DNA of 64,000 bases from positions 35,948-99,947 of the forward strand of contig CAMOCC010000001.1 of the NCBI GenBank assembly GCA_946610035.1, read 5' to 3'. The translations under genes and the position numbers were made by a program. The notes below the pieces were generated by a model. The model was not told the DNA's origin and ran no database searches. It worked only from the letters and a program-made list of their open reading frames with translations. The stretch is from an uncultured Verrucomicrobiota bacterium (GTDB lineage Bacteria > Verrucomicrobiota > Kiritimatiellia > RFP12 > UBA1067). Below are positions 14,920 to 32,084 of this stretch, piece by piece (the stretch's first letter is position 1; every line of letters begins with the position of its first letter).

Positions 14920-14926
14920 CGGCGCC

Positions 14927-15901: not shown

Positions 15902-15915
15902 GTGTGGAGGTGTTG

Positions 15916-16599
15916 ATGGAGCGGTTCGACAGCGAAATTGACGTTGATCGCGTTCGCGAGGAGCTTTCGCGCGGTTCGCGCGTGCTGCTCGTGGTGCGCC
16001 ACGCGGAGCGTCCGAGGATAGACAACGAGGACAAGACGTTCGGCGCCCACCTTCCTCTCACCCCGGCGGGCGAGCGGATGAGCGAGGAGTTCGGGCGGAT
16101 GCTGAAGGGCGCTTCGGACGACGTGCAGTTCATGGCGAGCCCGCTCAGGCGCACGGTCCTCACCGCCCGTTTCATCGCGCGCGGCATGGGGATCGACGTG
16201 CCTGTGATCCCGACGGATGCGGCGATAGGCAACTCGAGCGCGTACATCGAGGACGAACTGAAGGTGTGGGAGCTCTTCAGGGACGGACGCTTCTTCGAGA
16301 AGATGGTCGACTACTTCGAGCGCGGCGAGCAGTACGGCTTCAATACGCTCAAGGAGGCGACTGACGCCTTCGAGGAGTACTGTCTTTCGCTCTTCACGGG
16401 GAAGCTCGGGATATTCTCCTCCCACGATGTCTACATCGCTGCGTTTGCGAAGGGGCGCGGGATACTGCCCGCAGTGGTGAGGGAAAACTGGCCGCGATTC
16501 CTCGACTCGATTGCGATAATCGTCGATCCGGACGGCACGAGGCGCTACAGGTTCGTACGTGCGGGGCTTACGGACGGCATATGCGGGGTCGCGACATGA
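15916..16599 (+). CDS. Histidine phosphatase superfamily protein (SixA/PGM-like)
   Basis: LLVVRHAERP (RHG-type catalytic motif). GGAGG SD precedes the ATG at 15916. Confidence 0.6.
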   Translation: MERFDSEIDVDRVREELSRGSRVLLVVRHAERPRIDNEDKTFGAHLPLTPAGERMSEEFGRMLKGASDDVQFMASPLRRTVLTARFIARGMGIDVPVIPTDAAIGNSSAYIEDELKVWELFRDGRFFEKMVDYFERGEQYGFNTLKEATDAFEEYCLSLFTGKLGIFSSHDVYIAAFAKGRGILPAVVRENWPRFLDSIAIIVDPDGTRRYRFVRAGLTDGICGVAT

Positions 16600-17207
16600 A
16601 GGCGCGACGCGGAGAGACCGTCGTCCTTGCGGCGGGCGACTTCCCGAAGAGGGGCGGCGAGGCGTGGCGGCTTCTCGCAGGGGCGAAGCGCGTCGTATGC
16701 TGCGACAGCGCGGCGGACGCCTACGTGCGGCGGATGAAGAAGCCGCCGTCGGCCGTCGTCGGCGACCTCGATTCGTGGTGCGGACGCGCCCCCGAGGGGT
16801 CCGAGATAATACGTATTGCGGAGCAGGAGACGAACGACCTCTCCAAGGCGGTCCGCCTCTGCGAGGAGCGCGGCTGGCGCAACCCGGTAGTCCTCGGGGC
16901 GACCGGGCGGCGCGAGGACCATACATTGGGCAACGTCTTCAGGGCGATGGAGTTCGGGCTGGAGGTCGTGACGGACTTCGGGCGCTTCATCCCGGTCGAC
17001 GGCGAGGCGCGCATCAGGGTGGCGACGGGGACTCCGGTATCCATCTTCGCGACCGACCCTGCGACGCGCATGACGTCGAAGGGGCTTCAGTGGCCGCTCG
17101 ACGGCGTCAGGTTCGGGAATTTGTACTGTGCGACGCTGAACAGGGCTGTTTCGTCCGTCGTGACGCTGACTTCCACAAGCCGAGTTTATGTCTATATCGC
17201 CTTTTGA
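16596..17207 (+). CDS. Thiamine pyrophosphokinase
   Basis: VVGDLDS ... EQETNDLSKA, typical of the TPK catalytic domain. ATGA overlap with the upstream gene. Confidence 0.6.
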   Translation: MKARRGETVVLAAGDFPKRGGEAWRLLAGAKRVVCCDSAADAYVRRMKKPPSAVVGDLDSWCGRAPEGSEIIRIAEQETNDLSKAVRLCEERGWRNPVVLGATGRREDHTLGNVFRAMEFGLEVVTDFGRFIPVDGEARIRVATGTPVSIFATDPATRMTSKGLQWPLDGVRFGNLYCATLNRAVSSVVTLTSTSRVYVYIAF

Positions 17208-17353
17208 CTCCTGAGTGGAACATGTTCCGGGTGACGGCAAGGGGTCTCTCGCCATCTGATAGTCGGGTCGTTGCGCAGGCGACGAGTTGCGGAATGGCAG
17301 TGTCCGTAAGATGATTTCCCGAAGGCGGCGTAAAAATGATATAATATCCTTCA

Positions 17354-18496
17354 ATGAAAATTCTACAGGTCCTACCGGCGCTTGAACAGGGGGGCGTCGA
17401 ACGCGGCACGATTGAAATAGCGACGGCGCTTGCCGCCGCCGGTGTGCCGTCCGCAGTCGCGAGCGCGGGCGGGCGGCTCGTAGGCGAGCTGGAGCGGCTC
17501 GGCATAGAGCACTTCACACTGCCTCTCGCCTCGAAGAATCCGTTCACAGTCCGTCGTAACGGCAAAGCCCTCGCGCGTATTGCGCAGGAGGGCGGCTTCA
17601 CCCTGATGCACGTGCGCTCGCGTGCGCCGGCGTGGAGCGTGAGGCGCGCGTCGAGGCTTTCGGGCGTCCCTTTCATGTCGACATGGCACGGACTCTACGG
17701 GACTGAGCCGAAGTTCCTCAAGATACCCTACAATCGGGTGATGCTGGACGGTTTGAAGACGATAGCCGTCTCCGACTGCGTGAGGAACCACATCTTGTCC
17801 GTATACGGCGCAGATCCCGCGAAGGTCGTGAGGATCCACCGCGGCGCCGACGTCGAGACGTTCCGCCCCGACGCCGTATCCGCCGAAGAGGCGGCGGCGT
17901 TCAAGGCCTCCCTTGGCTTCGACCCCGATACGCCTGTCGTCACGCTGCCCGGGCGCCTTACGTTCTGGAAGGGGCAGAAGGACCTCCTCGCGGCCGTCGG
18001 CATTATGCGCGAGCGCGCCGTCGGGGTCCTGTTCGTCGGCTCCGACCAAGGGCGGACGGAATACACGGCCGAGCTGAAGGCGCTTGCGGCGAAGCTGCCC
18101 GCCGCGAAGAAGGTCGTCTTCCTCGAGCATTCGAACGAGATGCCGAAGATATACGCCGTGAGCGACGTAGTGGTGAGCGCGTCGTCGTCCCAGCCGGAGG
18201 CGTTCGGCAGGATCATCCCCGAGGCGCAGGCCATGGGGCGCCTCGTCGTCGGTACTGCACACGGCGGCGCGTGCGAGACGATAGAGGACGGGAGGACCGG
18301 CTTCCTCGTCCCGCCCGCCGACCCGCCCGCGCTCGCGGCGGCGCTTGACAGGGCGCTCGACCTCCCGGCGGAGGAGAGGGCGAAGATGGCGGAGGCGTCC
18401 GTCAAGTCGGTGGGGGAGAACTTCTCCGTCGCCAAGATGTGCGCAAGGACTCTGGAGCTTTACAAGGAGATACACAATGGACTTCATCACAGGTAG
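17354..18496 (+). CDS. GT4-family glycosyltransferase (GT-B, retaining)
   Basis: C-terminal EAFGRIIPEAQAMGRLVVGTAHGGACETIEDGRTGFLV (E-x7-E motif). TGaTATAAT sits 9 nt upstream of the ATG. Confidence 0.75.
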   Translation: MKILQVLPALEQGGVERGTIEIATALAAAGVPSAVASAGGRLVGELERLGIEHFTLPLASKNPFTVRRNGKALARIAQEGGFTLMHVRSRAPAWSVRRASRLSGVPFMSTWHGLYGTEPKFLKIPYNRVMLDGLKTIAVSDCVRNHILSVYGADPAKVVRIHRGADVETFRPDAVSAEEAAAFKASLGFDPDTPVVTLPGRLTFWKGQKDLLAAVGIMRERAVGVLFVGSDQGRTEYTAELKALAAKLPAAKKVVFLEHSNEMPKIYAVSDVVVSASSSQPEAFGRIIPEAQAMGRLVVGTAHGGACETIEDGRTGFLVPPADPPALAAALDRALDLPAEERAKMAEASVKSVGENFSVAKMCARTLELYKEIHNGLHHR

Positions 18497-20330
18497 GAAG
18501 GGGTGGATGCTCCCGCCCGTCGTCTTCTTCGCGCTCGTCGTGGCGCTGTTCGCCGTCTGGGCCGCGCTCGAACCCGCGACGCTCGTGCGGCTCTTCGACC
18601 AGGACGGCCGCTCGCCGTTCGAGCTCGCGACGCTGCCTTTCTACGCGGCGATCGTCCCGATGGTCTGGATATTCAATCCGTTCGGCGGCTCGCGTCGCCG
18701 CAGGACCGTACTTGCGCTCATGGTGAGCATCGTCGCGGTGATGGCGATAGTCAAGGAGCTCGACCTCCACAACATGGCTCTGCACGCGCTCTATCCGCAG
18801 TTCGTCGGCGACGACGGAAGCATCCTCGCAAGCGCGGGCCTCCACAAGCCGGACGGCAAGTTGCTGACCGGGACGCCCTTCAAGATGCGCGTCCTCACCA
18901 ACGGCGGCGTCCCCTTCGGGATGAAGGCGCTCGTCGTCGGCTACTTCGCGGCCTTCTTCGGAGTGTTCGCTGCGGGCTTCGTCTACCTCCTCCAGTTCTG
19001 GATCGACGGCGTCCTCAGGCTGAGGCCGTGCGCATGGGCGTGGGGCTGCTTCGGCGGAAGCGGGGTCATGGTGCAGATCGCGGACAGGCTCCCCGCGTGG
19101 CTCGACCACGCGCACGGGCTGTCGAAATCCGAGGGCGCCGTTACGGCCGCGCAGTCGCTCTGCACCGCGCTGGAGGAGGGCGGCGAGCTGATGATAGCCG
19201 TCTTCGCGCTTCTGACGATCTACCTCGGCTGGCGGGAAGTTCGCGATTCGCGCACCACCGCCCGCGCGCCGCGCCGCGTCCTCTTCTGGGGCCGGTTCGA
19301 CCACGGCTACTCCAGGAACCGCGTCAACATCGCGCTTTTCAGGGAGCTGGGCTGGGCGGTCGACTTCTTCGACGTCGTCGTATCGCCGCGCTTCGGCGAC
19401 ATCGAGGCGTTCTGCCGCGGGCTCGGCCGCCGTCCGAAGCCGGACCTCGTCTGGGTGCCGGTGTGCCGTCAGCGCGACATAATGGCGGCATGCCGCTGGG
19501 CGCATCGCCGCGGCGTCAAGGTCCTCTTCGACCCGATGATCTCGGCCTGGGACAAGAAGGTCCTCGAACAGCGCAAGTGGAAGGCCGACGAGCCGAGGGC
19601 GCGTAAGCTCCACGACGCCGAGACGGCGATGATGAACGCGCCCGATTTCGTCACCTGGGATACGAGCTGCCACGTCGACTTCTGCGAAAGGGAGTTCCAT
19701 GTGCCGCGCGAGAGAATGGCGCCGCTCTTCACTGGAACCGACGAGAAGGTGTTCAGGCCGCAAGAGGGAGCGCCGGCGCCGAACGCCGAGTTCCGCGTCC
19801 TCTACCACGGCGCGTACCTGCCGCTGCACGGAATGGAGTACATCGTAGAGGCGGCGCGCATGACGGAGGGGAGGGGCATACACTGGGACCTCCTCGGCTG
19901 GGGCGCGTACAAGGCTCCGACCGAGGCGCTTGCCAAGGGCATATCGAACATCACATTCCTCGACAAGGTGCCGTACGTCGACGTCCCGAAGGTCATCTAC
20001 ACGGCGGACGTCGTCCTCGGCGTCTTCGGGACGACGGAGAAGGCGTCCCGCGTGATCGGCAACAAGATCTTCGAGGCGATGGGCTGCGCAAGGCCGGTCA
20101 TCAACGAGTTCTGCACGGGCTATCCGCCCGAGGCGAAGGACTGCAAGGCGATAAAGTTCGTCCCGCCGGGCGACGCGGCGGCGATCGTGAAGGCCGTCGA
20201 GGAGTACCGCGCCGACTGGGCGAACCGCGAGAGCTACAACGAGGCGGCCTACGACTTCTTCAAAAGGCACCTCTCGATGGCCGAGGTCAAGAAGCAGCTC
20301 GTCGGGATCCTCGGGAGGATGGGGCTGTGA
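18476..20330 (+). CDS. Membrane-anchored glycosyltransferase (N-terminal polytopic domain + C-terminal GT4-like domain)
   Basis: Starts MDFITGRKGWMLPPVVFFALVV. Overlaps the upstream gene by 21 nt. C-terminal region resembles the GT-B C-domain. Confidence 0.5.
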
Positions 20331-21367
20331 AGCGCCGTCCGAGACTGCTGTTCGTCGGCAACTTCCTCATCCGCCACTGGGGGAACGGACGCACCGGCAT
20401 AGACATGCGCTTCGAGGCCGCGGCCTTGAGGATGAACCACCCCGTCCTAACATTCTCCGAGCGCGACGTCGCCCGCTTCCTCGCCCCCCTCGGCTTCATG
20501 CGCAACATCGGCGCGAGGATGATGAACGGACGGCTCGTTAAGGCCGTCGCCAACTTCAAGCCGGACGTCGTCTTCATCTCCCACTGCGATTACGTGACGA
20601 ACGAGACGCTCGAGGCGTGCCGCAGGGCCGCGCCCGGGGTGAAGCTCGTCCATTTGAACTGCGATCCCGTCGAGACGGAGCACTGCTGTGCGCAGATAGC
20701 GAGGCGCATGCACTCGTGCGACGCGATCTTCGTGACGACCGCCGGCGAGAAGCTCAAGACATGGGTCACCGGCAGGAACGTCGTCGGGTACTTCCCGAAC
20801 CCCAGCGACCCCGCATTCGAGACGGAGGACAACTCGGTCAAGGCGGACTTCAAGTACGACCTCTTCTTCGCGGGGCGCCCCGCGCTCGCTGATGCGAGGA
20901 GGGACCTCCTCGACAAGCTCGTCGCGAAGCTCGACCCGAAGGTGAGGTTCGGCCTCTTCGGCATGGACCGGGCTCCGCTCGTCGTGGGACGCGCCTACGA
21001 GGAGGCGATAGCCGCGTCGAAGATGGGGCTTTCCATCAACCGCTTCGAGAACTGGAAGTGGTACGCGTCGGACCGCATCACGCACCTCATGGCGAACGGG
21101 GTCCTCACCTTCCAGTACGACGGCAACGACATGCAGAGGTTCTTCTCGGACAGGGAGACCGTCTACTTCCACACGCCTGAGGAGCTAGCGGAGAAGATCG
21201 CCTGGTACAACGAAAACGACAAGGCGAGGCGCACCGTGGCATCGGCCGGACGCGAACGGTACAACACGCTCTTCGACGCACGAAGGGTCCTTTCCTACAT
21301 CCTGGAGACGGTGCTCGGCGAAGGCTACACCTCCGCGTACGAATGGGCGAGGGAGGTATACCGTTGA
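20327..21367 (+). CDS. Putative GT1-like glycosyltransferase (CgeB/DUF3880-type)
   Basis: GTGA start overlap. C-terminal ...YFHTPEELAEKIAWYNENDKARRTVASAGRERY resembles the CgeB-like GT tail. Confidence 0.35.
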   Translation: MKRRPRLLFVGNFLIRHWGNGRTGIDMRFEAAALRMNHPVLTFSERDVARFLAPLGFMRNIGARMMNGRLVKAVANFKPDVVFISHCDYVTNETLEACRRAAPGVKLVHLNCDPVETEHCCAQIARRMHSCDAIFVTTAGEKLKTWVTGRNVVGYFPNPSDPAFETEDNSVKADFKYDLFFAGRPALADARRDLLDKLVAKLDPKVRFGLFGMDRAPLVVGRAYEEAIAASKMGLSINRFENWKWYASDRITHLMANGVLTFQYDGNDMQRFFSDRETVYFHTPEELAEKIAWYNENDKARRTVASAGRERYNTLFDARRVLSYILETVLGEGYTSAYEWAREVYR

Positions 21368-22740
21368 TGCACCTCGGCTGGTCGTCGCACATCTACCCGT
21401 TGGATGCCGCCGATCTGGCGGGCGTCCCGGACTACGACGGGCCGGACATCCCCGCATGCGACCTGCCGGGCGACGAGGTGGTGCTCCTGATCCGACGCGA
21501 AGCGCCCGACGCGCTGTTGCGCGGACGCGCCGCGATCGAAGCGGCCGGCGCCGGAACGGTGGACGTCCGCATAGTGTTCGTCCCGACCATCGCGAAGTGG
21601 AACCTCCCGTTCACCCTCATGCGCCTCCTGCGCAACAGGAGGCGGTTCAAGAGCTCGGGCGTGTACCATATTGCGACGGACTCCCTGCGCAGCCTCGGGC
21701 TCGAACGCGCCGTAAGGACGCTCGACCATCCGCAGCGCAGAGGCTCCTCGGACAGGATTGAAAGGATGCATCGCCTGGAGGAGAGCCTGCGGACGGAAGG
21801 CTACGACGACTCGAAGCCCGTTGTCGTCATGCTCTGCCGCACGCGCGGCGTCGAGGACTCCGTCCGCCAGGGGCACCACCGTATCAGCGTATGCCTGGAG
21901 GTCGGAATCCCCAAGGTGGCGCTTCGCTTCTCCGCTGCAGGGGCGCTGCCGCGCATCCTGGGAAGGGCCGTGGGGCGCCCGCCGATCAGGCTGGACGTGC
22001 TGAAACGCTCCATTGAAAGCGCATGCGGCAAGCCCGTGCGGCGGATCGTTCCGCTCGGGGACAGTCCCAATCCGGCGAAGGTCATCGTCGTCCCCGAGCC
22101 GGGCGGAAGGTTCGTCCTCGACCTCTCCCAGAGCCGCAGGCTTACAGTGGGGCTCGCCCCGGCGATACTCGTCCCGCTGCTCGTCGCAGGCGCGTTCGTA
22201 TTGGACGTCGCCGTCATGAAGACGGCGATGGGCGAACACTCCCTGGTGGCTTGGAGCCAGTTCGCGCTTTCGGGCGCGTCGTCAGTGCTTTTGTGGATCC
22301 TCGTCTTACGCGAGAGGCGCGCGAGGTGCGGATACGCGGCCCTTGCCTTCACCTTCGCCATGACTGCGGTGTACGAGCTTCTGAGGGACGTCCTCGACGT
22401 GGGCTCCAACGTTGTCGGACCGGCCGCCACGCTATCCGCCGTCTCCTTCGCCGTTCTCGTCGCGGTGTTTGCGAGGCGCTCCTTCGCCGTCGGCGTCCGC
22501 CGCATAGCCTCGTCTCGCGCCTTCCCCGCGCTCGTCTTCGGGGCTGTTCTCACGTGGATCGTCGCGAAGCTCGTCTCGAGCCGCGCGATTTGGGGCGCAC
22601 TCAAACTCACCGAGCACGACTTGAAGACGGTGAAGCACGTCATCGAGGAGGGGACGGAGTTCCTGGGCGACGCCATTGCGGCGTGCTGGGCGATCTCCTT
22701 CTTCCTCGAGCGCCTTGCGGATTGGAGGCACCGGAGATGA
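21367..22740 (+). CDS. Hypothetical protein with C-terminal multi-TM domain
   Basis: TGATG start overlap. At least four hydrophobic helices in the C-terminal third. Confidence 0.4.
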   Translation: MHLGWSSHIYPLDAADLAGVPDYDGPDIPACDLPGDEVVLLIRREAPDALLRGRAAIEAAGAGTVDVRIVFVPTIAKWNLPFTLMRLLRNRRRFKSSGVYHIATDSLRSLGLERAVRTLDHPQRRGSSDRIERMHRLEESLRTEGYDDSKPVVVMLCRTRGVEDSVRQGHHRISVCLEVGIPKVALRFSAAGALPRILGRAVGRPPIRLDVLKRSIESACGKPVRRIVPLGDSPNPAKVIVVPEPGGRFVLDLSQSRRLTVGLAPAILVPLLVAGAFVLDVAVMKTAMGEHSLVAWSQFALSGASSVLLWILVLRERRARCGYAALAFTFAMTAVYELLRDVLDVGSNVVGPAATLSAVSFAVLVAVFARRSFAVGVRRIASSRAFPALVFGAVLTWIVAKLVSSRAIWGALKLTEHDLKTVKHVIEEGTEFLGDAIAACWAISFFLERLADWRHRR

Positions 22741-24689
22741 AGGCCGATTTCGGGATAGGTGAATTGAAGTCCGCGCTGGAGTCCGGCTACGGCGTCGCGG
22801 TAGCCGCCCTTGAGCGGCTTCCCGGGCACGCCCATTCGATAAACTTCAAGGTCGCGACGGAAGACGGAGCGGCCTTCGCCGCGAAGTGCTTCCCCGCCGC
22901 CCACGTGTCGATGTTCGAGCGCCTTCTCGCGCACACCGCCCCTTCGGAGAATCCCCTCGCGGTGACGCGTCTCTTCGACGGGCGCATACTCGAGTTCGGA
23001 TCGTGGCGGATCGCGGCGCTCAAGTGGATCCCGGGCGGACGCAAATACCCGGATGAACTTACTGACGCGGAGGCGGATGAATTCCTCTCCGCATACGGCG
23101 CCTTCGCCGCCGGGTTGAAGGACGACGGATTCATAATGCCCGTCCGGGACGGCCTTGCGCTCAAGCGGAAGCTCATCGAGCGGCTGAAGGGCGGCAATGC
23201 GCCCGCGATCGTGCGTGAACTGAAGCTCATGCCGGACGACACGCTCTCGCTCGCACCGGAGGCGAGGCGGATCATCCACGGCGACCTCCACTGGGAGAAC
23301 TTCAGGTTCGAGGGCGGCAGGGTGAGCGGCTTCCTCGACTTGGAGGCGCTCAGGTTCGGGACGCCGGCGGAGGATTTTGTCCGCTACATAGTCTGCCGCG
23401 CCGAGCACCTCAGGTGGTACGATCTCGGTGGACGGCGCAGGCTGCTCGATGCGTTCCGCATGTTCCTCGCCCGGACGTCCCTTACGCGTGCGGAGTGGCT
23501 TTTCGCAATCGACGGCTACCTCCTCAGGAAGCTCGACAAGAAGATCAAGGCGAGGCGCGTCCCGCTGGCGACGAGGATAAACCTCGGGGCGCGATTCGGC
23601 TTCTACCGCGAACTGAGGGACGAGGTGTATCGCGCCATGCCGCACGTACGCACGGACGACCGGACTGTAGTCAAGATTCTTGGCGGGACGGTCAAGCGCT
23701 TCATGGGCGGACGCGTCTTCGACTGGGGCGGGAGGTTCCGCTTCGTCTGCGATCCCGCCTGCCGCGACTACGACTGGCTGTGCGTCTACGACGAGCTGCC
23801 GAACGCGTACCCGGGGGTGGTGCGCGGGAGGATGCGCGTGGAGTGTCCGAGGGGGCGGACGATCCTCGCCACGCAGGAGCCGGTGTCCGTCAAGTTCTAC
23901 AACAAGGCGTATACGCGCCAGTTCGGAGTCCTCCTCACGAACCGTCCGCCCGAGGCCGAGGGCCATCCCGGCTACGTGAAGGGCGAGGGGTACATGGTCT
24001 GGTACACCGGTCGCAGCTTCGCCGGGGAGCGCGCACACGAGGTCCCGGAGAAGACGAAGGTCCTCTCCGCCGTCTATTCGGCAAAGCGCATGGCGCATAC
24101 GCGCCATGCGGACCGCTACCGCTTCCTGGAGCTTCTCAGGCGCGAGGTGTCCGGCTTCGACTGGTTCGGGAAGGGCGTGAAGCCCATCGAGGAGAAGTCC
24201 GACGCCCTGGACGGCTACAAGTACACGATTGCCTTCGAGAACCACATCGGCGCGGGGCATTGGACGGAGAAGCTTTCTGACGCGCTGGTCGCGGGATGCC
24301 TTCCGTTCTACGCGGGCGATCCGGAGGTCGGGCGCATACTTCCGCCGGACTGCTTCATCCCGATTCCGGCGGACGACCCCGACGCGGCGCTTGCAATCGT
24401 GAAGAAGGCGATTGCCGAAGGCGAGTACGGGCGGCGGCGCGACGCGATAATGAAGGCGAGGGAGCTTCTGATGACGAAGTACAACCTCTTCGCCCAGATC
24501 GAGAAGGCATGCGAATGGAAAATGGAAAATGTAAAATGTAAAATGGAAAATGGGGAATGGGGAATGGACGAGCCTTCGTGCTGCATTTGCACGCGCAGGC
24601 ATACGAGGCTGTATCCGAGCGCGGCCGTTGCAGATTTGACGCATCACATCAAGAGATTGTTAAAGAGAAGTCCGGGAGGAACGCCATGA
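22738..24689 (+). CDS. Fusion protein: APH/choline-kinase-like phosphotransferase domain + GT10 (alpha-1,3-fucosyltransferase-type) domain. The 3' end contains a 7-nt repeat tract.
   Basis: IIHGDLHWENFRF (HGDLHxxN kinase motif). YKYTIAFENHIGAGHWTEKLSDALVAGCLPFYAGD matches the GT10 signature (Y-K-[FY]-x-[IL]-AFEN...TEK). ATGA overlap at both ends. Confidence 0.65.
24513..24568. repeat. Heptanucleotide tandem repeat (GAATGGA/AAATGGA/AAATGTA) x8 at the 3' end of the kinase-GT10 gene
   Basis: gaatgga aaatgga aaatgta aaatgta aaatgga aaatggg gaatggg gaatgga. AT-rich tract in a GC-rich gene. Unit length is not a multiple of 3. Confidence 0.85.
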
Positions 24690-25489
24690 CCGACGCCGAT
24701 CAGGGTAAAGTGAACGTTATCTGCCTCAAGTGGGGGACGGCATATCCGCCTTTCTACGTGAACAGGCTCTATGCGGGCGTCAGGCGCCACATGAAGCGTC
24801 CGTTCCGCTTCATCTGCTTCACCAACGAGCCGGAGGGACTCAATGCTGGGATCGACGTCCAGCCCATTCCGCCGCGCCCGGACGGGCTCGACCCGAAGCG
24901 CAGGTGGCCGACGGTGTACACGAAGCTCGCGCTGTTCAAGGATGGATGCGGCGGATTGAAGGGACCGACGCTCTTCCTCGACATCGACCAGATAATCGTC
25001 GGCGACATGGACCGCTTCTTCGACTACAAGCCGGGCGAGTTCTGCATCATCCACAACTGGATAGAGCGCAGGAAGCTCATCTTCAGGGGGCGTCCGAACA
25101 TCGGCAACTCCTCGTGCTTCCGCTTCGAGGCGGGCTCGATGAACAGGGTGTGGGAGGCGTTCGCGACAGACCTGCCCAATGCCTACGACAAGAAGAGGTT
25201 TGCGACGGAGCAGGCGTTCATGACCCACGCGGTCGGGCTCGGACAGAAGGTGAACTGGTGGCCGGAGGACTGGGTCGTCTCGTTCAAGCGCGTCTGCCAC
25301 AGGATATTCCCGATGAACCTGATGCTGCCGCCGAAGAGGCCGGCGGGCGCTTCGATCCTCTGCTTCCACGGCGATCCGAGTCCGCTGGAGGCGATAGACG
25401 GGTTCAGGTTCCACCACGGTGTGAAGGTGCCCATTCACCAGACTACGCTTCCGGCGCCGTGGGTCAAGGATCTGTGGGAGAACGGCTGA
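24686..25489 (+). CDS. Putative nucleotide-sugar glycosyltransferase (DXD-type)
   Basis: ICLKWGTAYPPFYVN...RFICFTNEPEG and LFLDIDQIIVGDMD (DxD). ATGA overlap. Confidence 0.35.
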   Translation: MTDADQGKVNVICLKWGTAYPPFYVNRLYAGVRRHMKRPFRFICFTNEPEGLNAGIDVQPIPPRPDGLDPKRRWPTVYTKLALFKDGCGGLKGPTLFLDIDQIIVGDMDRFFDYKPGEFCIIHNWIERRKLIFRGRPNIGNSSCFRFEAGSMNRVWEAFATDLPNAYDKKRFATEQAFMTHAVGLGQKVNWWPEDWVVSFKRVCHRIFPMNLMLPPKRPAGASILCFHGDPSPLEAIDGFRFHHGVKVPIHQTTLPAPWVKDLWENG

Positions 25490-26790
25490 TGTCTGCGGAG
25501 CTGCACCTCTTCGTCCTCTGGGAGAAGGCCCGCTTCGCGGAGAGGCGGATACTCGACGACCTGCGTTCACAGGCGAAGATCGAGGTCGTCGACGCGCGGG
25601 AGATGGAGTTCCGGGGCGATCCCGCCGAGTCGTTCACCGCGTTCTACGGGCCGAGGAAGCCGCTCGACGCGGCGCTCAAGGTGAAGAAGTGCGGAGGGGG
25701 CCGGTTCCTCGTCGTGGTCGTGCGCGACCTTGAGCCGAGCTACGCCCGGCGCTTGGCGCGCGAGGGCAAGTACTACACTGCGAACGAGAGGATGTACGAC
25801 CTCAAGGAGAAGTACCGGAAGTGGGCGGGGCGCAGGCATCGCGTCCACGGGACGACGGACACGGGCGAGTTCGCGCGCGACGTGTTCCTCCTCACGGGCC
25901 GCACGGCGGCCGAGTGGGAGCGGGGCGTCCCCGGGGGAATCGCCTTGAACATCCCGGCGAAGGCGTCGTGGCGCACGGTCGTCGATACCGTCGGTGCGGA
26001 CCTCGGGCTTTCCGACTGCCGCGTAGTCCTCGAGGGCAAGTACATAAACGACGTGTTCTTCGAGGGGAGGTTCAAGGGACGCGACGCGATGGTGAAGTGT
26101 TCGTCGAAGTGCGCGTGGTCGGTCGGGAACGAGTTCCGCCTTGCGAAACGGATGTTCGCCGAATCGCCCGGCGTAGTCCCGGAGCCGTTGGCCGAATGGA
26201 CGTCGGAGGACGGACGGATGGCGTTCACTGTCGCGGAGAGGGTGGCGGGCCCGTCGCTCACTGACCTCCTGCGGCGCGGAGTCTCGGACGGGGAGGCGGA
26301 CCGCTTCGCCGCCGACATCCTGAATCTTGCGTCCGCCCTCAAACGAACGGGAATACTCCACCGCGACCTCTTTGCGGACAACCTGCTCGTCGGCGCGGAC
26401 GGCCACCTCAGGGCGATAGACTGGCAGCTTTCGATAGACCGCGCCGACTACAGGGAGGACCCTTGGGTCGTCAGGAACTGGAAGTTCCGCTACGTCGTCT
26501 TCGGCGTCAACCGAGAACTGGGGCTTGGCGTCTGGAACGACTTCCACGCGCTTGGAAAGGTCCTTGCGCTCCTGCCGCAGACCGAAGCCGTAGTCAAGGC
26601 GTCCGAACGCCTTGCGGCGGAGGAGCGGGGGATGACCTTCGCCGCGCCGCCTGACCGGGCGACTTGGCTCAAGCTCCGCCTCTACGCGCTTTCGCTTCGC
26701 CTCCAGATGCTCGTCAAGGGACGCCGCCATCGCAAATACGCGCAGCTCGAGCGCCGGCTCAGGACGATAACAGGGTACTGTCGGGACTAG
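25489..26790 (+). CDS. Protein-kinase-like (PK-like/APH fold) domain protein
   Basis: ILHRDLFADNLLVGADGHLRAIDWQLS (HRDLxxxN catalytic loop + DW). TGATG overlap. Confidence 0.5.
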   Translation: MSAELHLFVLWEKARFAERRILDDLRSQAKIEVVDAREMEFRGDPAESFTAFYGPRKPLDAALKVKKCGGGRFLVVVVRDLEPSYARRLAREGKYYTANERMYDLKEKYRKWAGRRHRVHGTTDTGEFARDVFLLTGRTAAEWERGVPGGIALNIPAKASWRTVVDTVGADLGLSDCRVVLEGKYINDVFFEGRFKGRDAMVKCSSKCAWSVGNEFRLAKRMFAESPGVVPEPLAEWTSEDGRMAFTVAERVAGPSLTDLLRRGVSDGEADRFAADILNLASALKRTGILHRDLFADNLLVGADGHLRAIDWQLSIDRADYREDPWVVRNWKFRYVVFGVNRELGLGVWNDFHALGKVLALLPQTEAVVKASERLAAEERGMTFAAPPDRATWLKLRLYALSLRLQMLVKGRRHRKYAQLERRLRTITGYCRD

Positions 26791-26824
26791 GGTCAAGCGC
26801 GAAAAGGCGATATTTGGTATAATA

Positions 26825-28225
26825 TTGTCCGTGGCTACCAATTTCAAGACAAGGCTTATACGGCTTGCGACGGCGCTCATCCCTGCAAAGGGGGTGAGGA
26901 AGCGCATTCGCAGGCGGCTTCTGGACCGCGAGCGCGACGAAAGGGTTGCGCTGACTCTGCCGGGGGTCCGTGCCCGCTACGCCGCGCACGAGGCCGCGTG
27001 CCGTGCGAAGCTTGCGCGCGGCGAGCGGCTGTCAGTCGCCTTCCTCGTCTGCGACGCGTCCATGTTCTCGGGCGAGCCCGTCTTCCTGAAGATGCGCGAC
27101 GACGCGCGCTTCAGGCCGTTCATCGCCGTCGCCCCGCGCGTGACGAGGGGAGACGAATTCCTGCGCGAAACGCTCGACAAGACCGCGGGTGCGCTGGAAG
27201 GGCGCTATCCGGGGGCGGTGGTGCGGCTCTACGACCCCGCCACCGGGCGGAGGGAGCGCCTTGATGCGGACGTCGTTTTCTCCACCGTGCTCTACGAGGA
27301 CCAGACGTATCCCGACTGGACGACTGAGAGGCTTTCGGAACGCTCGCTTGTCGCGATACTCTACTACGGCTACGGCGGACTCTTCTTCACGAACGAGAGG
27401 AAGACGCCGTTCCTCCCGAACATCGTCCTCTCCTGGCGCTATTTCGTGTCCAACGAGGCGACCAGGGCGATGAGCGCCGCAAAGAACCCGCTCCTCTCGC
27501 ACAACACGTTCGCCGTAGGCTACTGCAAGATGGACAGGCTAGAAGAATGTAAAATGGAAAATGGAAAATGTAAAATGGGAAGAGGCGAATGCAGTGTAGG
27601 ACTTGCACCGGGGCCTGCGAGGAAGAAGGTGATGATATGTCCGCACCACTCCATAGACAGGGAGGCGGACGGCCTCGCGCTTTCGACGTTCCTCGAGCAT
27701 GCGGACCTCTTCAGGCGCCTTCCCGCGATGTTTCCGGATGTCGATTTCGTGTTCAGACCGCATCCGCTCCTCTTTCCGAGGCTCGCGACGGCGAAGTGGT
27801 GGGGGCCCGAGAGGACGGCCCGCTACGCGGCGGAGATGGAGGCGCATCCGAACGTGGAGTTCCAGAGGGGCGGCGACTACTTCGCGACGTTCGCCGGGTC
27901 GGACGCGCTCATCCACGACTGCGGGTCGTTCCTGGCGGAGTATTTCTACACGGGGAAGCCGCAGTGCTACATGCTGGCGGACGACGCCACGGTGGAGCGG
28001 CAGTTTCTGCCGTTCGCGAGGCGGCTTCTCGACCACGTGGAGCGCGCGTACACAGACGACGACATCGTCGCCTTCGTGCGACGGGTGGTCCTGGCGGGCG
28101 ACGATCCGCGCAAGGCGGGGAGGGAGGACTTCGCGGCGCGCGAGGTGTGCGTGAACCATCCGCATGCGGCGGCGGGCGTCGTCGATGCGGTTGTGAAGGG
28201 AATCAAACAAGAGGAGGTCAAATAA
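26825..28225 (+). CDS. TagF/TagB-like CDP-glycerol glycerophosphotransferase family protein (start TTG 26825 or GTG 26831). Internal 7-nt repeat tract.
   Basis: C-terminal half carries KKVMICPHHSID...FRPHPLLFPR motifs reminiscent of the Glyphos_transf domain. Low certainty on family. Confidence 0.4.
   Translation: MSVATNFKTRLIRLATALIPAKGVRKRIRRRLLDRERDERVALTLPGVRARYAAHEAACRAKLARGERLSVAFLVCDASMFSGEPVFLKMRDDARFRPFIAVAPRVTRGDEFLRETLDKTAGALEGRYPGAVVRLYDPATGRRERLDADVVFSTVLYEDQTYPDWTTERLSERSLVAILYYGYGGLFFTNERKTPFLPNIVLSWRYFVSNEATRAMSAAKNPLLSHNTFAVGYCKMDRLEECKMENGKCKMGRGECSVGLAPGPARKKVMICPHHSIDREADGLALSTFLEHADLFRRLPAMFPDVDFVFRPHPLLFPRLATAKWWGPERTARYAAEMEAHPNVEFQRGGDYFATFAGSDALIHDCGSFLAEYFYTGKPQCYMLADDATVERQFLPFARRLLDHVERAYTDDDIVAFVRRVVLAGDDPRKAGREDFAAREVCVNHPHAAAGVVDAVVKGIKQEEVK
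27545..27593. repeat. Heptanucleotide tandem repeat (GAATGTA/AAATGGA) x5-7 inside the TagF-like CDS, between its N- and C-terminal domains
   Basis: gaatgta aaatgga aaatgga aaatgta aaatggg (aagaggc gaatgca). Same repeat family as 24513-24568. Confidence 0.85.
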
Positions 28226-28227
28226 AG

Positions 28228-28668
28228 ATGAGCAAGACGATTATAGGCTATACGAGCGGGGTCTACGACCTCTTCCACATAGGGCATCTCAACCTTCTGA
28301 AGAACGCGCACGGGCTCTGCGACAAGCTGATCGTGGGCGTTTCTGTGGACGAGCTCGTGGCGTACAAGCACAAGAGGGCTGTTATCCCGTTTGCGGAGCG
28401 GCTGGAGATCGTCCGTTCGATCAAGTACGTGGACGCGGCGATTCCGCAGGACGACCTGGACAAGTACAAGATGTGGGAGAAGCTCCACTTCGACGTCCTC
28501 TTCGTCGGCGACGACTGGTTCAACACGCCGAGCTGGAAGGAGATGGAGGCCAAGTTCTCGAAGGTGGGCGTCAGGGTCGTCTACTTCCCGCGCACCAAGG
28601 GGACGAGCTCGACGATCCTCTCCGCTACGCTCAAGAAGCTGCGCGAGGGAGAGGGAGGGGCGGCATGA
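28228..28668 (+). CDS. HxGH-family cytidylyltransferase (glycerol-3-phosphate cytidylyltransferase TagD / CCT-ECT type)
   Basis: GYTSGVYDLFHIGHLNLLK (HxGH). RTKGTSST near the C-terminus. GAGGAGG SD. Confidence 0.8.
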   Translation: MSKTIIGYTSGVYDLFHIGHLNLLKNAHGLCDKLIVGVSVDELVAYKHKRAVIPFAERLEIVRSIKYVDAAIPQDDLDKYKMWEKLHFDVLFVGDDWFNTPSWKEMEAKFSKVGVRVVYFPRTKGTSSTILSATLKKLREGEGGAA

Positions 28669-29609
28669 GCCTTCTGGAGCGCAAGTACGAGAAGGGCCAG
28701 CTGGTGACGCGCCTTTGCGGCCTGCGCGTGTGGCGCAGCGCCGGGGAGCCGGGGCTGTCGCTGCAGTCGCAGCTGCTCAGGCGCGAACTGCTGACGGCCG
28801 CCGACATCGGGAACATGCCTCCGGCGCGGGGCTATTCGCGGGATGTCCAGCTCGCCGGCGTCGTGCTGCTCAAGGAGGTGCTGCGCGTCGCGCACGAGAA
28901 CGGATTCCATCCGTGGATGATAAGCGGGAGCCTTCTCGGGGTCGTCCGCCACGGCGGGAGGTTCGTGCCGTGGGACGACGACGTCGACGAGGGGATGATA
29001 CGCGAGGAGTACGACCGTTTCTGCGAGGTGTTCAACGAGAAGTGCCGCGAAGGTTTCTTCGCCTGGCGCCGCTTCTCGCGCAAGTGGAACCAGATCAAGG
29101 TCTCGCACCGCGAGCTGCCGAAGGACGTCACCGCGTCCATCATGTCCTATGATCGCTACTACGCCCCCCTCCCCGGGCTCAAGGAGAAGCACGAATTGTT
29201 CATGAAGGTGAGGTCCGCCCAGGAGCGCAACGCGAAGCGGTTCGATCCGCAGGCGGACGACGCCGCGCACCGCGCGGCGCTCGACCAGGCGAGGCGGGAC
29301 TGGATCATGGACGGCAGGGAGGCGGCGCCGGACGCGGCGAAACCGGCGATCTACCGCGGCGTCGAATTCTCCGTCGCCGGCTGGGTGAAGGAGGCCGCCT
29401 ACGATTACGACGACATATTCCCGCTTAAGTCCGCGACATTCGAGGGCGTCCCCGTGATGGTCCCGAACGACCCCGAGACGGTGCTCACGTACAACTACGG
29501 CGACTGGGCCGGATGGCCCGGACGCCTGGGGCCGCACCATCCGGCCTCGCGATTCAACATGGAGAAGGCGTTGTCGCTCAGGAGGTTCCTGGCGCGGCAC
29601 CGGGATTAG
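28665..29609 (+). CDS. LicD-family phosphotransferase (phosphocholine/phospho-alcohol transferase)
   Basis: ISGSLLGVVRHGGRFVPWDDDVDEGM matches the LicD signature. ATGA overlap. Confidence 0.7.
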   Translation: MSLLERKYEKGQLVTRLCGLRVWRSAGEPGLSLQSQLLRRELLTAADIGNMPPARGYSRDVQLAGVVLLKEVLRVAHENGFHPWMISGSLLGVVRHGGRFVPWDDDVDEGMIREEYDRFCEVFNEKCREGFFAWRRFSRKWNQIKVSHRELPKDVTASIMSYDRYYAPLPGLKEKHELFMKVRSAQERNAKRFDPQADDAAHRAALDQARRDWIMDGREAAPDAAKPAIYRGVEFSVAGWVKEAAYDYDDIFPLKSATFEGVPVMVPNDPETVLTYNYGDWAGWPGRLGPHHPASRFNMEKALSLRRFLARHRD

Positions 29610-29621
29610 GGGAGGGCGGCG

Positions 29622-30173
29622 ATGCTTGACGTGTTGACCGGAATTATGACATTCTGGGTCCTGCCCAGGTCCCGCCGTCTCAAGTGGCGGCGGCGGCTTG
29701 TCTCGTTCTGGCACGGCCTGCCGGTGAGGCGGCGCGCGAAGTCCGTCGGCAGGGGGCTTAAGTGCCATGGGCCCGTAAAGGTCACGCGCCACACCGTCGT
29801 CGGCGAGGGCGTTTCATTCAACGGAGCCAGGATACTTGGGACCGGCAACGTCGTCTTCGGCAACTACGTGCATTCCGGCGAGGGCCTTGTGATCTTCACC
29901 CGCAACCACAACTACAACGGCGGCGAGGCGATCCCGTACGACAGGACATACACGGTCAAGGATGTGACCATCGGCGACTTCGTCTGGATCGGCGCGTATG
30001 TGATCCTCCTTCCCGGCACGAAGATCGGGGAGGGCGCGATCATCCAGGCGGGTTCCGTCGTCCACGGGGAGATTCCGCCCATGGCCATCGCCGGCGGCAA
30101 TCCCGCAAAGGTCTTCGCCGAGCGCGACAGGGCGCACTTCCTTCGCCTTAAGGCGGAAGGAAGATTCCACTGA
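29622..30173 (+). CDS. Hexapeptide-repeat (LbH) sugar O-acetyltransferase
   Basis: Repeated [LIV]GxxxxI hexapeptides. C-terminal IAGGNPAKV. Confidence 0.7.
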   Translation: MLDVLTGIMTFWVLPRSRRLKWRRRLVSFWHGLPVRRRAKSVGRGLKCHGPVKVTRHTVVGEGVSFNGARILGTGNVVFGNYVHSGEGLVIFTRNHNYNGGEAIPYDRTYTVKDVTIGDFVWIGAYVILLPGTKIGEGAIIQAGSVVHGEIPPMAIAGGNPAKVFAERDRAHFLRLKAEGRFH

Positions 30174-30226
30174 ATGTCGTCGATCAAAAACCCGTAGCCG
30201 CCGGCGGAAAAGCCGGGGCCTGGCGC

Positions 30227-31033
30227 TTATCGCGCGTTATCCTCGTCGTCGTCGGGTTCCGGCGGCGTATAGTTTTCATCGAGCCACCTGTTCGCGGCGT
30301 CGATGTCGGTCCACTCTTCGCCCGTCAACTGTTCATATTCCTCCCGGGCGACACGAGCGCCGGCCTCGTTGCCGCTTTCAATGATTGAGACAAGGGACTC
30401 GAGTATCTCAAGGTCGTCGTCGCGGGATGTGATCTCGCTTACGATGCTGGTCAGCGCTTCGACGCTGTCGAGCGTCTTCATCGTCGCCTCGGCGATTGAC
30501 AATCGCAGGTCGTTGTCCTCGATGTCGCTCATTGCCAGCTCCCACTGGGATATAGCCGTGTTGGCCACATCGTCATCGGGGTCCGCCATCAACGGAGTCA
30601 GATCGGGAAGCGCCTGCGGACCGAACCACCCCAATGCCTCGATTGCCGCCTCACGAACGGCGGGGTTTGTCGACTTAAGCGCATGTTGAGCCGCGCTTGC
30701 AACAGCGGAGAAGTTGTCCTCGTCCAATGCGTCCTGGACTGACAGCACGATCTTGCGGTCGTCGGCGGAAAGTTCATCAAGAAACGCTTCAAAGCCTGGT
30801 TTTTCGCCCAACCGTGACTGTGGAATCCGCCGTTTGGAAACCACATCCTGCACTGCAGCTTTCGGGTCCTGCCGTCCCGGTTTCGGCTTGGACCGGATGA
30901 CTCGTCTGCCTGGATCGGGTTTAACCCGGCCGCTCTCGTCACCCGTCCCACGCTCCGTTTGATATAGGCATATAAGCCCTGCGGCGACGGTCGCCACCGC
31001 CAGGGCTGCCCAACTAACAGTCTTACGATTCAT
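30227..31033 (-). CDS. N-terminally membrane-anchored HEAT/ARM-like repeat protein with acidic C-terminus (paralog of 49133-50083)
   Basis: One TM helix, then repeated A.EALGW.G helical repeats and a DDDEDNAR tail. Confidence 0.5.
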   Translation of the reverse strand: MNRKTVSWAALAVATVAAGLICLYQTERGTGDESGRVKPDPGRRVIRSKPKPGRQDPKAAVQDVVSKRRIPQSRLGEKPGFEAFLDELSADDRKIVLSVQDALDEDNFSAVASAAQHALKSTNPAVREAAIEALGWFGPQALPDLTPLMADPDDDVANTAISQWELAMSDIEDNDLRLSIAEATMKTLDSVEALTSIVSEITSRDDDLEILESLVSIIESGNEAGARVAREEYEQLTGEEWTDIDAANRWLDENYTPPEPDDDEDNAR

Positions 31034-31043
31034 GTCCAGTATA

Positions 31044-32042
31044 TCAGTCGATGACGACCGGCCAGCTGGCCTTCAGTTTCTTGCAGGTTGCGATGCCTGT
31101 CGCCGTTTCGCCGTTGATGCGTCCGCTGACGTTGAACGAATACTTCTTGAGCTTTGGCTTGCCTTTCTCGATATTCGCCTCGTTGGTTGCATAGACCTTG
31201 AACGAACCGGTGAAAGTCGCCTTCTTGGAGTTGTACTTGAGTTTGAGACCGGATATGTTGGTCTTGTTCTCGTCGTCGAGGCCGATGAGTTCATACCACG
31301 TTTCGCCGTCTTCCTTGAATTTCTTGTACTTGATGCTCGGCGCCTTGCCGCAGTTCCAGCTCTTGGCGTTCGAGGTCACAATCTCGAGATCCGGAATCGT
31401 CTCGAAAATCAGGTCGTAGTCGTCGCTTGGCATCTCGTAGTCATCCGCTTCGACGGAGAAGGTATGCTGCCCGTGCACAAACGTCCCGTCGTCGTCATCG
31501 TCATCCGTCTCGTATTCGTCGGCGAATTCGTAGGCTCCCGCCTTGCCGCCGACCTCGCCGTCTGACGTAATTACCACCTCGACAGCTCCGAGGTTCTTGA
31601 CACTCGACCATGTAGCCGTGATTGTGCCGCCTTCATCGGGCGCGAATGCGGTTTTGGACGCCGTTGCGCTCTTGCCCGACGCCAGCTTGAAGGCGATCTT
31701 GACCGAAACCTTTCCCTTCTTCGACTTTTTGCTAGTCGTGATGGTTGCGAGACCTGCATAGGTGCCGTCTTCGTTCACGATGTAGGCCTGTTTCGTCATG
31801 GCCTTCGACCAGTCCGTCGTGCTCCAGCTGCCGCCCGACGACGAGCCTCCGCCCGACGACGAGCTCTCGTCTCCGCAGAACACGCAACCCGAGGAGGGCT
31901 TCGATGGTATGATGACAGGATCGTCGTCTATGACGATTTCGCCGCCGTTGCAGAACGCGCAGCCGTCGTAGACGGTCGTTTTCTTGGCCTGCGCCGCAAT
32001 CGCGACGGCGCCGAGCAGGGAGAGAAGAATCGCTTTTTTCAT
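31044..32042 (-). CDS. Secreted protein with two CxxC pairs and the shared Lys-rich C-terminal module
   Basis: Signal peptide MKKAILLSLLGAVAIAAQA. CAFC and CVFC. C-terminal LKLKYNSKKATFTGSFKVY...KKLKKYSF...GIATCKKLKASWPV. Confidence 0.6.
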   Translation of the reverse strand: MKKAILLSLLGAVAIAAQAKKTTVYDGCAFCNGGEIVIDDDPVIIPSKPSSGCVFCGDESSSSGGGSSSGGSWSTTDWSKAMTKQAYIVNEDGTYAGLATITTSKKSKKGKVSVKIAFKLASGKSATASKTAFAPDEGGTITATWSSVKNLGAVEVVITSDGEVGGKAGAYEFADEYETDDDDDDGTFVHGQHTFSVEADDYEMPSDDYDLIFETIPDLEIVTSNAKSWNCGKAPSIKYKKFKEDGETWYELIGLDDENKTNISGLKLKYNSKKATFTGSFKVYATNEANIEKGKPKLKKYSFNVSGRINGETATGIATCKKLKASWPVVID

Positions 32043-32084
32043 AGCCTTGTCCTTTCTTGTAGATGGGTTTTGGTGGGCGTTCGG

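Follow-up and report, generated by a model that had tools for sequence, protein, structure and literature searches.

We analyzed a glycan gene cluster of 11 plus-strand genes, G5 to G15 (positions 17354–30173), in a 64-kb stretch of DNA, called the window below, which is part of a 111.5-kb metagenome scaffold (ENA ERZ28612940, scaffold_307) from uncultured ruminant-gut Kiritimatiellae. The cluster encodes glycosyltransferases (GTs), two kinase-like proteins (G9 and G11) and a module of enzyme families that handle alcohol phosphates activated with cytidine diphosphate (CDP): a TagF-like protein (G12), a cytidylyltransferase (G13), a LicD-family phosphotransferase (G14) and a left-handed beta-helix (LbH) acyltransferase (G15). 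The kinases and the CDP-alcohol module are independent modules, separable in both directions in 44 related loci. The reading we prefer, with slightly better than even confidence, is that the locus assembles and phosphorylates an envelope oligosaccharide, and that the separate CDP-alcohol module, probably using CDP-glycerol, decorates this glycan.

The G+C content of the window is about 64%, and homologs of its proteins are found almost only in uncultured gut Kiritimatiellae and in some Akkermansia. Reading frames were set by third-position G+C and candidate start codons; they match the independent gene calls of the public record, including the length of 617 aa for G6. The cluster proteins were assigned to families with Pfam and NCBIfam models. 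Together with the frame analysis, these assignments confirm that the genes named in an earlier note on this DNA exist where it had placed them.

Kinases and the CDP-alcohol module in related loci

The comparison included 74 species-level genome loci found with the G9 profile, 41 metagenome loci found with the G12 profile, and contigs from an exact protein look-up. The cluster proteins were mapped on these loci with TBLASTN, and the counts exclude the window's own species. The presence of the genes is nested: the GT10-like domain of G9 and the G10 protein are the most widely distributed, reaching into Akkermansia, followed by the APH kinase domain, G11, G12, the cytidylyltransferase and LicD, which are progressively rarer. 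Eleven loci anchored on the APH kinase have at least 3 kb of flank beyond the core; the cytidylyltransferase is absent from six of them and LicD from nine. Thirty-three loci anchored on G12 have at least 1.5 kb of downstream sequence, and among these the cytidylyltransferase was found in 24, LicD in 11 and the LbH gene in 13. Upstream, where at least 4 kb were available in 13 G12-anchored loci, six lack the kinase, four of which keep the cytidylyltransferase.

Single loci illustrate the separation. In L113 the trio of G12, cytidylyltransferase and LicD stands alone among housekeeping genes (ketol-acid reductoisomerase, Na+/H+ exchanger, aminotransferase and others), and module genes without kinases are also present in L105, L107 and L122. 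The reverse is seen in L093, which has the APH, G10, G11 and G12 genes and no cytidylyltransferase. The module itself varies: L018 has a second LbH gene in place of LicD, and L091, which has the full set with the kinase as a separate gene, carries a second cytidylyltransferase (55% identical) after LicD.

Since the module needs no dedicated kinase, a substrate drawn from central metabolism, such as glycerol-3-phosphate, is favored. The kinases and the module are often neighbors, which fits their action on the same glycan.

The CDP-alcohol module

G12 (26831–28225, plus strand, GTG start, 464 aa) is a TagF-like GT-B protein and a candidate CDP-alcohol phosphotransferase. Its AlphaFold model (pLDDT 89.6) has two domains in a GT-B fold, preceded by a long, basic helix at the N-terminus. 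The structure search gave the top TM-score to TagF (3l7m_B, 0.57) and also matched TarL bound to CDP-ribitol (8va1, E = 2e-10). The label "TagF-like" used in the earlier note is thus borne out by the fold but not by Pfam, where G12 scores 17.4 bits with Glyphos_transf (PF04464), below the threshold of 22.1; the family members P0145 and P0171 carry a precomputed PF04464 match. The family comprises at least 315 clusters. Four histidines (H272, H273, H311 and H362) are invariant in it and are candidate counterparts of the catalytic H444 and H584 of TagF. Searches of PDB sequences with the single G12 sequence and with the profile found no relative. In the conspecific locus L014 (759–2058, corresponding to 26831–28225 of the window), about 63 nt have been lost between short direct repeats, which shifts the frame of the TagF-like gene; this allele is either a natural loss of function or an assembly error.

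G13 (28228–28668, plus strand, 146 aa) is an HxGH cytidylyltransferase of the TagD/ECT lineage, where ECT is the ethanolamine-phosphate cytidylyltransferase (CTP_transf_like PF01467, 75 bits). It carries the motifs FHIGH (HxGH) and RTKGTSST (RTxGxSST) and aligns over its full length with TarD (2b7l) and TagD (1coz). In single-domain comparisons with solved structures, TarD (69.5 bits) and TagD (68 bits) score above the first domain of human ECT (45.6 bits); the choline-phosphate enzymes score 42 bits. The divergent cytidylyltransferases encoded beside other G12 homologs do not help in fixing the substrate, none of them reaching the TagD cutoff. G13 is 86–98% identical to its orthologs in L005, L017, L018, L091 and L095–L133, the neighboring proteins being 50–83% identical; its high identity would reflect either unusually strong constraint or recent exchange.

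The gene for G14 (28665–29609, plus strand, 314 aa) overlaps that of G13 by ATGA. G14 is a LicD-family phosphotransferase (LicD PF04991, 87.7 bits, cutoff 22.6), and its WDDDVD motif aligns with the WDYDVD metal motif of FKRP. The last gene, G15 (29622–30173, plus strand), encodes an LbH (hexapeptide) acyltransferase, matched by Hexapep.

Precedents for such enzymes acting on glycerol phosphate are known: PCYT2, of the TagD/ECT lineage, makes CDP-glycerol, and the LicD-family proteins FKTN and FKRP transfer glycerol phosphate (PMC8587909, PMC9223686). Unexpected phosphorylated substrates are possible for cytidylyltransferases, as a phosphoglycerate cytidylyltransferase reported recently shows (PMC12275187), which calls for caution over the substrate of G13. 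As the cytidylyltransferase and LicD genes are translationally coupled and lie beside a TagF-like GT-B gene, all of families that handle CDP-alcohols, a phospho-alcohol decoration step, as proposed earlier, is the natural reading of this part of the cluster.

Kinases and glycosyltransferases upstream of the module

The gene for G9 (22737–24689, plus strand) overlaps that of G8 by ATGA and encodes an APH-type kinase (aa 1–300) fused to a GT10 fucosyltransferase-like domain (aa ~310–590). Pfam assigns APH (PF01636) to residues 26–230 with 58 bits and Glyco_transf_10 (PF00852) to residues 437–543 with 28.5 bits (cutoff 23.9). In the alignment of 23 family members, K50, H181, G182, D183, N188 and D201 are invariant, covering the ATP-binding lysine, the HGDxHxxN loop and the metal-binding aspartate; the same holds in the C-terminal half for E501, N502, E511 and K512 of the FENxxxxxxxTEK motif. 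In a search with the G9 profile, the N-terminal half matched viomycin and aminoglycoside kinases, and the C-terminal half matched plant FucTA (1.7e-9) and Helicobacter pylori FucT (7e-8) across the FEN...TEK motif. In the AlphaFold model (pLDDT 89.7), the kinase domain superimposes on APH(4)-Ia, YihE, homoserine kinase II and APH(9), and there is no choline kinase among the 50 structure matches listed for this domain. A word-indexed search returned 28 protein clusters of the full-length G9 family, one of them labeled Kiritimatiellae, and the full-length loci of the genome scan point to Kiritimatiellae-type gut metagenome-assembled genomes.

G11 (25489–26790, plus strand; TGATG overlap with G10) is protein-kinase-like, with an HRDLFADN loop at aa ~300 and weak Pkinase/APH matches, and its N-terminal domain of about 200 aa lies outside known families. 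G11 stays below every Pfam threshold, and NCBIfam gives a weak match to the Kdo kinase model NF002475. Against the PDB, it matches eukaryotic protein kinases and, more weakly, WbdD, the enzyme that phosphorylates the terminal mannose of the Escherichia coli O9a antigen. G11 itself has no match to Kdo/WaaP (PF06293), and its 65%-identical ortholog in L091 reaches 26.3 bits (cutoff 21.3).

Judged by their families, G9 and G11 look like glycan kinases and not like LicA-type alcohol kinases: neither matches Choline_kinase (PF01633), even at E ≤ 10. Kinase domains fused to glycosyltransferase-type domains are found both in G9 and in P0176, a relative of G10 in which a YrbL-like kinase fold is joined to a G10-like domain, and kinases acting on the glycan are therefore favored. 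LicA-like kinases were considered and rejected on the grounds of family, of the fusion of G9 to the GT10-like domain and of the co-occurrence data.

G10 (24686–25489, plus strand, 267 aa; ATGA overlap with G9) is the best-conserved core protein, with 50–83% identity across the compared loci, and has an invariant DxD (D99, D101). An exhaustive HMMER search found 2,795 representative clusters of its family at E ≤ 1e-3. The designation "DXD glycosyltransferase" of the earlier note stands as far as the conserved DxD is concerned and finds no backing in family relationships, as neither Pfam nor PDB sequences yielded a relative, with the single sequence or with the profile. Ten sampled distant relatives gave faint matches only, including one to GT8 at the DxD region. 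From its sequence, it is plausible but unproven that G10 is a glycosyltransferase, possibly with a GT-A fold.

The remaining genes upstream of the module are three GT-B glycosyltransferase genes and one for a second membrane protein. G5 (17354–18496, plus strand, 380 aa) is a GT4 glycosyltransferase (Glycos_transf_1, 101 bits; Glyco_transf_4, 78 bits). G6 (18477–20330, plus strand) combines an N-terminal multi-pass membrane domain of about 260 aa, with four or five hydrophobic segments, with a C-terminal GT-B domain (43 bits); the membrane domain is a separate gene in other species. G7 (20327–21367, plus strand; GTGA overlap with G6) is a GT-B glycosyltransferase (Glyco_trans_1_2, 67 bits). 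G8 (21367–22740, plus strand; TGATG overlap with G7) has a soluble N-terminal half and a hydrophobic C-terminal half with about four to five segments. A Pfam search assigned it to no family, and its position immediately 5' of the kinase gene is kept in relatives.

Transcription units

The cluster is tightly coupled, with seven of the ten junctions within 17354–30173 overlapping. All eight overlaps listed in the earlier note are present: ATGA at 16596, 22737, 24686 and 28665, GTGA at 20327, TGATG at 21365 and 25487, and a 20-nt overlap of G5 and G6 (18477–18496). They are not successive junctions of one long operon, as had been claimed. The junction at 16596 couples a histidine phosphatase gene to a thiamin pyrophosphokinase gene and belongs to another unit (12964–17207), which also encodes an ABC permease and is unrelated to glycan synthesis. 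In addition, the gaps 17207–17354 and 26790–26831 each contain a TGnTATAATAT box. A single operon held together by eight couplings is thus ruled out by the promoter boxes, by the gaps and by the place of 16596 in the thiamin/phosphatase/ABC unit.

The octamer TATAATAT occurs five times in the window, at 7108–7115 (minus strand), 7212–7219, 12948–12955, 17340–17347 and 26818–26825, compared with 0.06 expected occurrences, and TGn precedes each copy (TGnTATAATAT). Each box lies 7–10 nt 5' of the start codon that opens a string of co-directional genes (at 7227, 12964, 17354 and 26831, and once on the minus strand). The extended −10 box TGATATAAT (17337–17345, plus strand) lies 8 nt before the ATG of G5, which lacks a Shine-Dalgarno sequence and has a leaderless-type start, and the internal extended −10 box TGGTATAAT (26815–26823, plus strand), in the 40-nt gap between G11 and G12, lies 7 nt before the GTG start of G12. 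The first genes of the strings have no Shine-Dalgarno sequence; for the internal genes, GGAGG-like sequences are present within the gene before. We read the boxes as extended −10 promoters giving leaderless or nearly leaderless transcripts, and the pattern suggests that such transcripts are usual in this Kiritimatiellae lineage. The box before G12 is kept in conspecific strains, and related boxes are found in L092 and L005/L017; L018 and L093 have no box, and G12 abuts G11 there. Boxes of the TGGTATAAT type also head operons in the related loci L005, L006, L044 and L088.

The cluster is best described as two internally coupled units: unit A (G5–G11, 17354–26790) and unit B (G12–G15, 26831–30173). 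Between 17354 and 30173 there are no terminator-like sites except a weak one inside a gene, and read-through combined with the internal promoter is therefore likeliest; unit B is probably transcribed both from its own promoter and by read-through from unit A. A terminator-like hairpin with a T-rich tail (30247–30277, plus strand) follows G15, the last gene of the cluster.

Two further structured sites were seen upstream of the cluster. A GC-rich hairpin with a T-run (cgccgcggcacgggccgcggcgttttt, 12916–12947) ends at the −10 box of the next unit, so that terminator and promoter are contained in about 45 nt. A 48-bp unit is repeated in tandem five times at 1383–1620 (88% matches), each copy with the GC-rich hairpin GACGCGGCA-AGA-TGCCGCGTC; a CRISPR array was ruled out here, as there are no spacers. 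The Rfam scan of the window detected no RNA family, and there are no tRNA genes in it.

Proposed pathway and alternative explanations

The pathway outlined here takes the family and fold assignments, catalytic motifs, overlaps, boxes and co-occurrence as observed, and adds substrates, an acceptor and an order of steps that we infer. Unit A would build and phosphorylate an oligosaccharide on the cytoplasmic side of the inner membrane, using three GT-B glycosyltransferases, the GT10-like transferase, the DxD protein, two membrane-anchored proteins and two kinases. Both kinases may phosphorylate sugars in the glycan under construction, in the manner of WaaP, KdkA and WbdD, and not a free alcohol. 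G13 would activate a phospho-alcohol from central metabolism with cytidine triphosphate, sn-glycerol-3-phosphate being the most likely substrate and CDP-glycerol the product. G12 and G14 would each move the alcohol phosphate onto the glycan, releasing cytidine monophosphate, and G15 may add an acyl group.

As for the acceptor, signal peptides are absent from all cluster enzymes, and only G6 and G8 have membrane segments. Comparison of the 11 cluster genes with protein families gave no match to a flippase/Wzx, a polymerase, an initiating phosphoglycosyltransferase or a chain-length regulator, and none to an exporter (ABC, TagGH/Kps-type) or to an LCP-ligase family. These absences and the Kdo/WaaP-like kinase suggest that the glycan is assembled stepwise on a lipid acceptor already in place, as happens with the core of lipopolysaccharide (LPS). 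The acceptor would most likely be an LPS-core/lipooligosaccharide-type or other lipid-anchored oligosaccharide.

Several observations weigh against this pathway. The locus has no feature from which the acceptor could be read, genes for Kdo, heptose or lipid A are missing from the window, and the match of the G11 ortholog in L091 to Kdo/WaaP is borderline. G8 and G10 have no assigned function. The score of G12 with the TagF family is below threshold, and UDP-GlcNAc 2-epimerases match its model as closely as TagF does. The best NCBIfam model for G13, glycerol-3-phosphate cytidylyltransferase (TIGR01518), gives 88.7 bits, with an equivalog cutoff of 165.4; RfaE domain II comes second with 63.7 bits. 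Among the solved structures, human ECT totals 73.7 bits over its two domains, above TagD, and the divergent cytidylyltransferases encoded beside other members of the G12 family are no closer to TagD than to RfaE domain II. Finally, the kinases and the cytidylyltransferase module stand in the same order in the window and in L005/L017, L018, L091, L117 and L130, which would be compatible with a metabolic link between them.

Such a link is the core of a lic-like explanation modeled on the earlier note. In it, a free amino-alcohol (choline or ethanolamine) would be phosphorylated by an APH-type kinase and converted to the CDP-alcohol by the cytidylyltransferase, and LicD would then place it on the glycan. 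Choline and ethanolamine kinases do belong to the APH superfamily, G13 scores about as well with human ECT as with TagD, LicD is above threshold, and the shared gene order recurs in several species. This kinase–cytidylyltransferase–LicD logic nevertheless did not withstand the comparison, and we regard it as improbable: neither kinase matches the choline-kinase model, G9 is fused to a GT10-like transferase, the cytidylyltransferase belongs to the HxGH type and not to that of LicC, a LicB-type permease is missing, and the gene sets are separable, with kinases lacking the cytidylyltransferase in six of 11 loci and LicD/TagF-like/cytidylyltransferase genes lacking kinases in L113, L105, L107 and L122, LicD being the least conserved member of the module. 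A polymer of the teichoic-acid or capsule type, with G12 as a processive poly(glycerol phosphate) polymerase acting on a glycolipid primer made by unit A, is unlikely, albeit somewhat less so. It would agree with the match of the GT-B model to the polymerases TagF and TarL, with the basic N-terminal helix suited to membrane binding, and with the adjoining TagD-type cytidylyltransferase, an arrangement also found in Gram-negative glycerol phosphate (GroP) capsule loci (PMC8262930, PMC11924219). It sits poorly with the small size of G12 (464 aa) and its subthreshold Pfam score, with the lack of ABC-exporter, Wzx and LCP-ligase families among the 11 cluster genes, and with the L113 trio, which has no primer or export genes nearby.

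The nucleotidylyltransferase could instead belong to sugar-nucleotide salvage, in which APH would be an anomeric kinase of the NahK/AmgK kind and G13 a sugar-1-phosphate nucleotidylyltransferase resembling RfaE domain II, together feeding the GT10-like transferase. APH-fold anomeric kinases exist, a kinase–transferase fusion suits product channeling, and RfaE domain II is the second-best model for G13 and the equal-best one for its divergent relatives. The genes, however, are associated otherwise: the nucleotidyltransferase is coupled to and travels with LicD and the TagF-like gene and not with the kinase/GT10 gene, which is frequent without it, and the LicD and TagF families use CDP-alcohols, not sugar nucleotides. 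This makes salvage the least probable of the explanations, and a very unlikely one. A more elaborate version of decoration, which we likewise give little credence, would have the kinase phosphates prime phosphodiester- or pyrophosphate-linked alcohol-phosphate chains, built by the TagF-like and LicD proteins on an LPS-core-like or protein-linked oligosaccharide, with both steps switched by repeat arrays in G9 and G12. Priming of this kind, if true, would parallel the POMK/fukutin/FKRP "matriglycan" logic in a bacterium and would produce a teichoic-acid-like anionic coat on the outer membrane of a gut bacterium of the PVC superphylum.

Heptanucleotide arrays in G9 and G12

The two arrays are the sole heptamer arrays in the window. 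Eight imperfect copies of AAATGKA (24513–24568, plus strand) lie in frame in a linker before the conserved C-terminal tail of G9, and seven imperfect units (27545–27593, plus strand) lie in frame in a low-confidence linker between the two domains of G12. Both arrays are AT-rich, encode peptides of the CKMENGKCKM type and are limited to this species; other G9 homologs have Ala/Pro linkers at this place. We compared 14 and 19 near-identical alleles and the DNA of 11 conspecific loci. The G12 array has four, seven or at least five units, one G9 allele has a 24-nt deletion, and the type of unit varies as well. Three Logan contigs end inside arrays. All fully assembled alleles compared are in frame, with no frame-shifted array among them. 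Phase variation through the arrays is possible and not supported so far; a phase-variable TagF-like gene is known in Campylobacter jejuni (PMC8949473).

Downstream region

According to the earlier note, the cluster lies directly upstream of an island of surface proteins. This is true for the window, but the arrangement is strain-specific, the island being missing in conspecifics: a 13-kb block (30189–43161) with genes for a HEAT-repeat protein, a reprolysin-like protein, a Wzy_C protein, a 1008-aa protein and a rotamase is absent from the conspecific strains L009, L010 and L014, which are 97–98% identical. It represents an insertion or a deletion particular to some strains, and its right end carries a gene for a tyrosine recombinase. 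The island was set aside as a functional partner of the cluster, being absent from conspecific strains, and the proposed link to Lys-rich surface proteins depends on this strain-specific adjacency. Conspecific strains and one other species have a conserved cassette after the cluster, with genes for a secreted protein, a rotamase of the PpiC type, an unknown protein and a Wzy_C protein of the O-antigen-ligase family. The Wzy_C neighborhood is better conserved than the adjacency to Lys-rich proteins, and it would be compatible with ligation of a glycan in the periplasm.

A 325-nt inverted repeat, 215 nt of which are 100% identical, is located at 41665–41989 and 43383–43710. It spans the upstream regions and the first ~20 codons, encoding signal peptides, of two divergent paralogous genes for secreted proteins (40713–41720, minus strand; 43655–44440, plus strand), each of which heads a cassette of rotamase, unknown protein and Wzy_C. 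A recombinase gene of the phage-integrase family (42107–43216, minus strand) lies between the repeat arms. The region may serve to switch between the two surface cassettes by inversion, or it may mark where an integrative element ends.

Comparison with known systems

Literature searches on envelope glycans of Kiritimatiellota, whose class Kiritimatiellae is abundant in ruminant and horse guts, found no work, and the locus is compared here with systems from other organisms. The lic1 phosphocholine locus (licA-licB-licC-licD) of Haemophilus influenzae and Streptococcus pneumoniae is similar in that a LicD-family transferase puts a CDP-activated alcohol on a surface glycan, in that genes of the APH/protein-kinase superfamily are nearby, and in the presence of short tandem repeats inside coding sequence. 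Of the four lic1 components, only LicD was found here; a LicA-type kinase, LicB and a LicC-type enzyme were not. The cytidylyltransferase is of the HxGH TagD/ECT type and not LicC, which has an NTP_transferase fold; G6 and G8, the sole membrane proteins of the cluster, have no transporter-family match that would indicate a LicB choline permease; the kinases miss the choline-kinase model, one of them is fused to a GT10-like domain, and both are separable from the cytidylyltransferase and LicD in relatives. The locus, moreover, adds a TagF-like transferase, which is a better-conserved partner of the cytidylyltransferase than LicD.

The locus is closer to the logic of TagD/TagF than to that of lic1. 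In wall teichoic acid synthesis and other GroP systems with TagD/Gct and TagF-like proteins, including the capsules of Actinobacillus pleuropneumoniae, Neisseria meningitidis and C. jejuni HS:1 (PMC8262930, PMC11924219), a small HxGH cytidylyltransferase is likewise encoded beside a TagF-like GT-B protein with a membrane-associating N-terminus. The differences are that both proteins score too low for their families (G13 for the TagD equivalog model, G12 for Pfam TagF), that the locus adds a LicD paralog and an LbH acyltransferase and has no exporter match, and that its host is a diderm of the PVC superphylum.

The O-mannosyl pathway of alpha-dystroglycan (POMK; ISPD or PCYT2; fukutin and FKRP; PMC8587909, PMC9223686) also combines a protein-kinase-like glycan kinase, a cytidylyltransferase and LicD-family phosphotransferases on one glycan; PCYT2 shares the HxGH lineage of G13, and the kinase has the glycan, not the alcohol, as its substrate. 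That pathway, in contrast, is eukaryotic and secretory, uses mainly ribitol phosphate and is not organized in an operon. The resemblance is one of logic. With the LPS-core and O-antigen glycan kinases WaaP, WaaY, KdkA and WbdD, G11 shares the HRDxxxxN core, the match to WbdD, an ortholog that passes Kdo/WaaP and a setting among cytoplasmic glycosyltransferases; it differs in staying below Pfam thresholds, in its additional N-terminal domain of ~200 aa and in having no heptose or Kdo genes nearby. With the GT10 alpha-1,3/4-fucosyltransferases (H. pylori FucT, plant FucTA), G9 shares the C-terminal nucleotide-sugar-binding domain with its FEN...TEK motif, but has an N-terminal APH kinase and a conserved extra C-terminal tail.

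In summary, the locus combines known enzyme families in a new way and belongs to an unstudied lineage. It provides a parts list that includes a lineage-restricted kinase/GT10 fusion, a large DxD family that travels with kinase domains, and a portable module of TagF-like protein, cytidylyltransferase and LicD. For annotation, it shows that clustering of a kinase, a cytidylyltransferase and LicD alone does not imply lic-type alcohol salvage. If glycerol phosphate is indeed placed on an outer-membrane glycan of this diderm, teichoic-acid-type chemistry would reach the PVC superphylum, and the pairing of a glycan kinase with LicD-family transferases, familiar from dystroglycan biology, would gain a simple model in bacteria.

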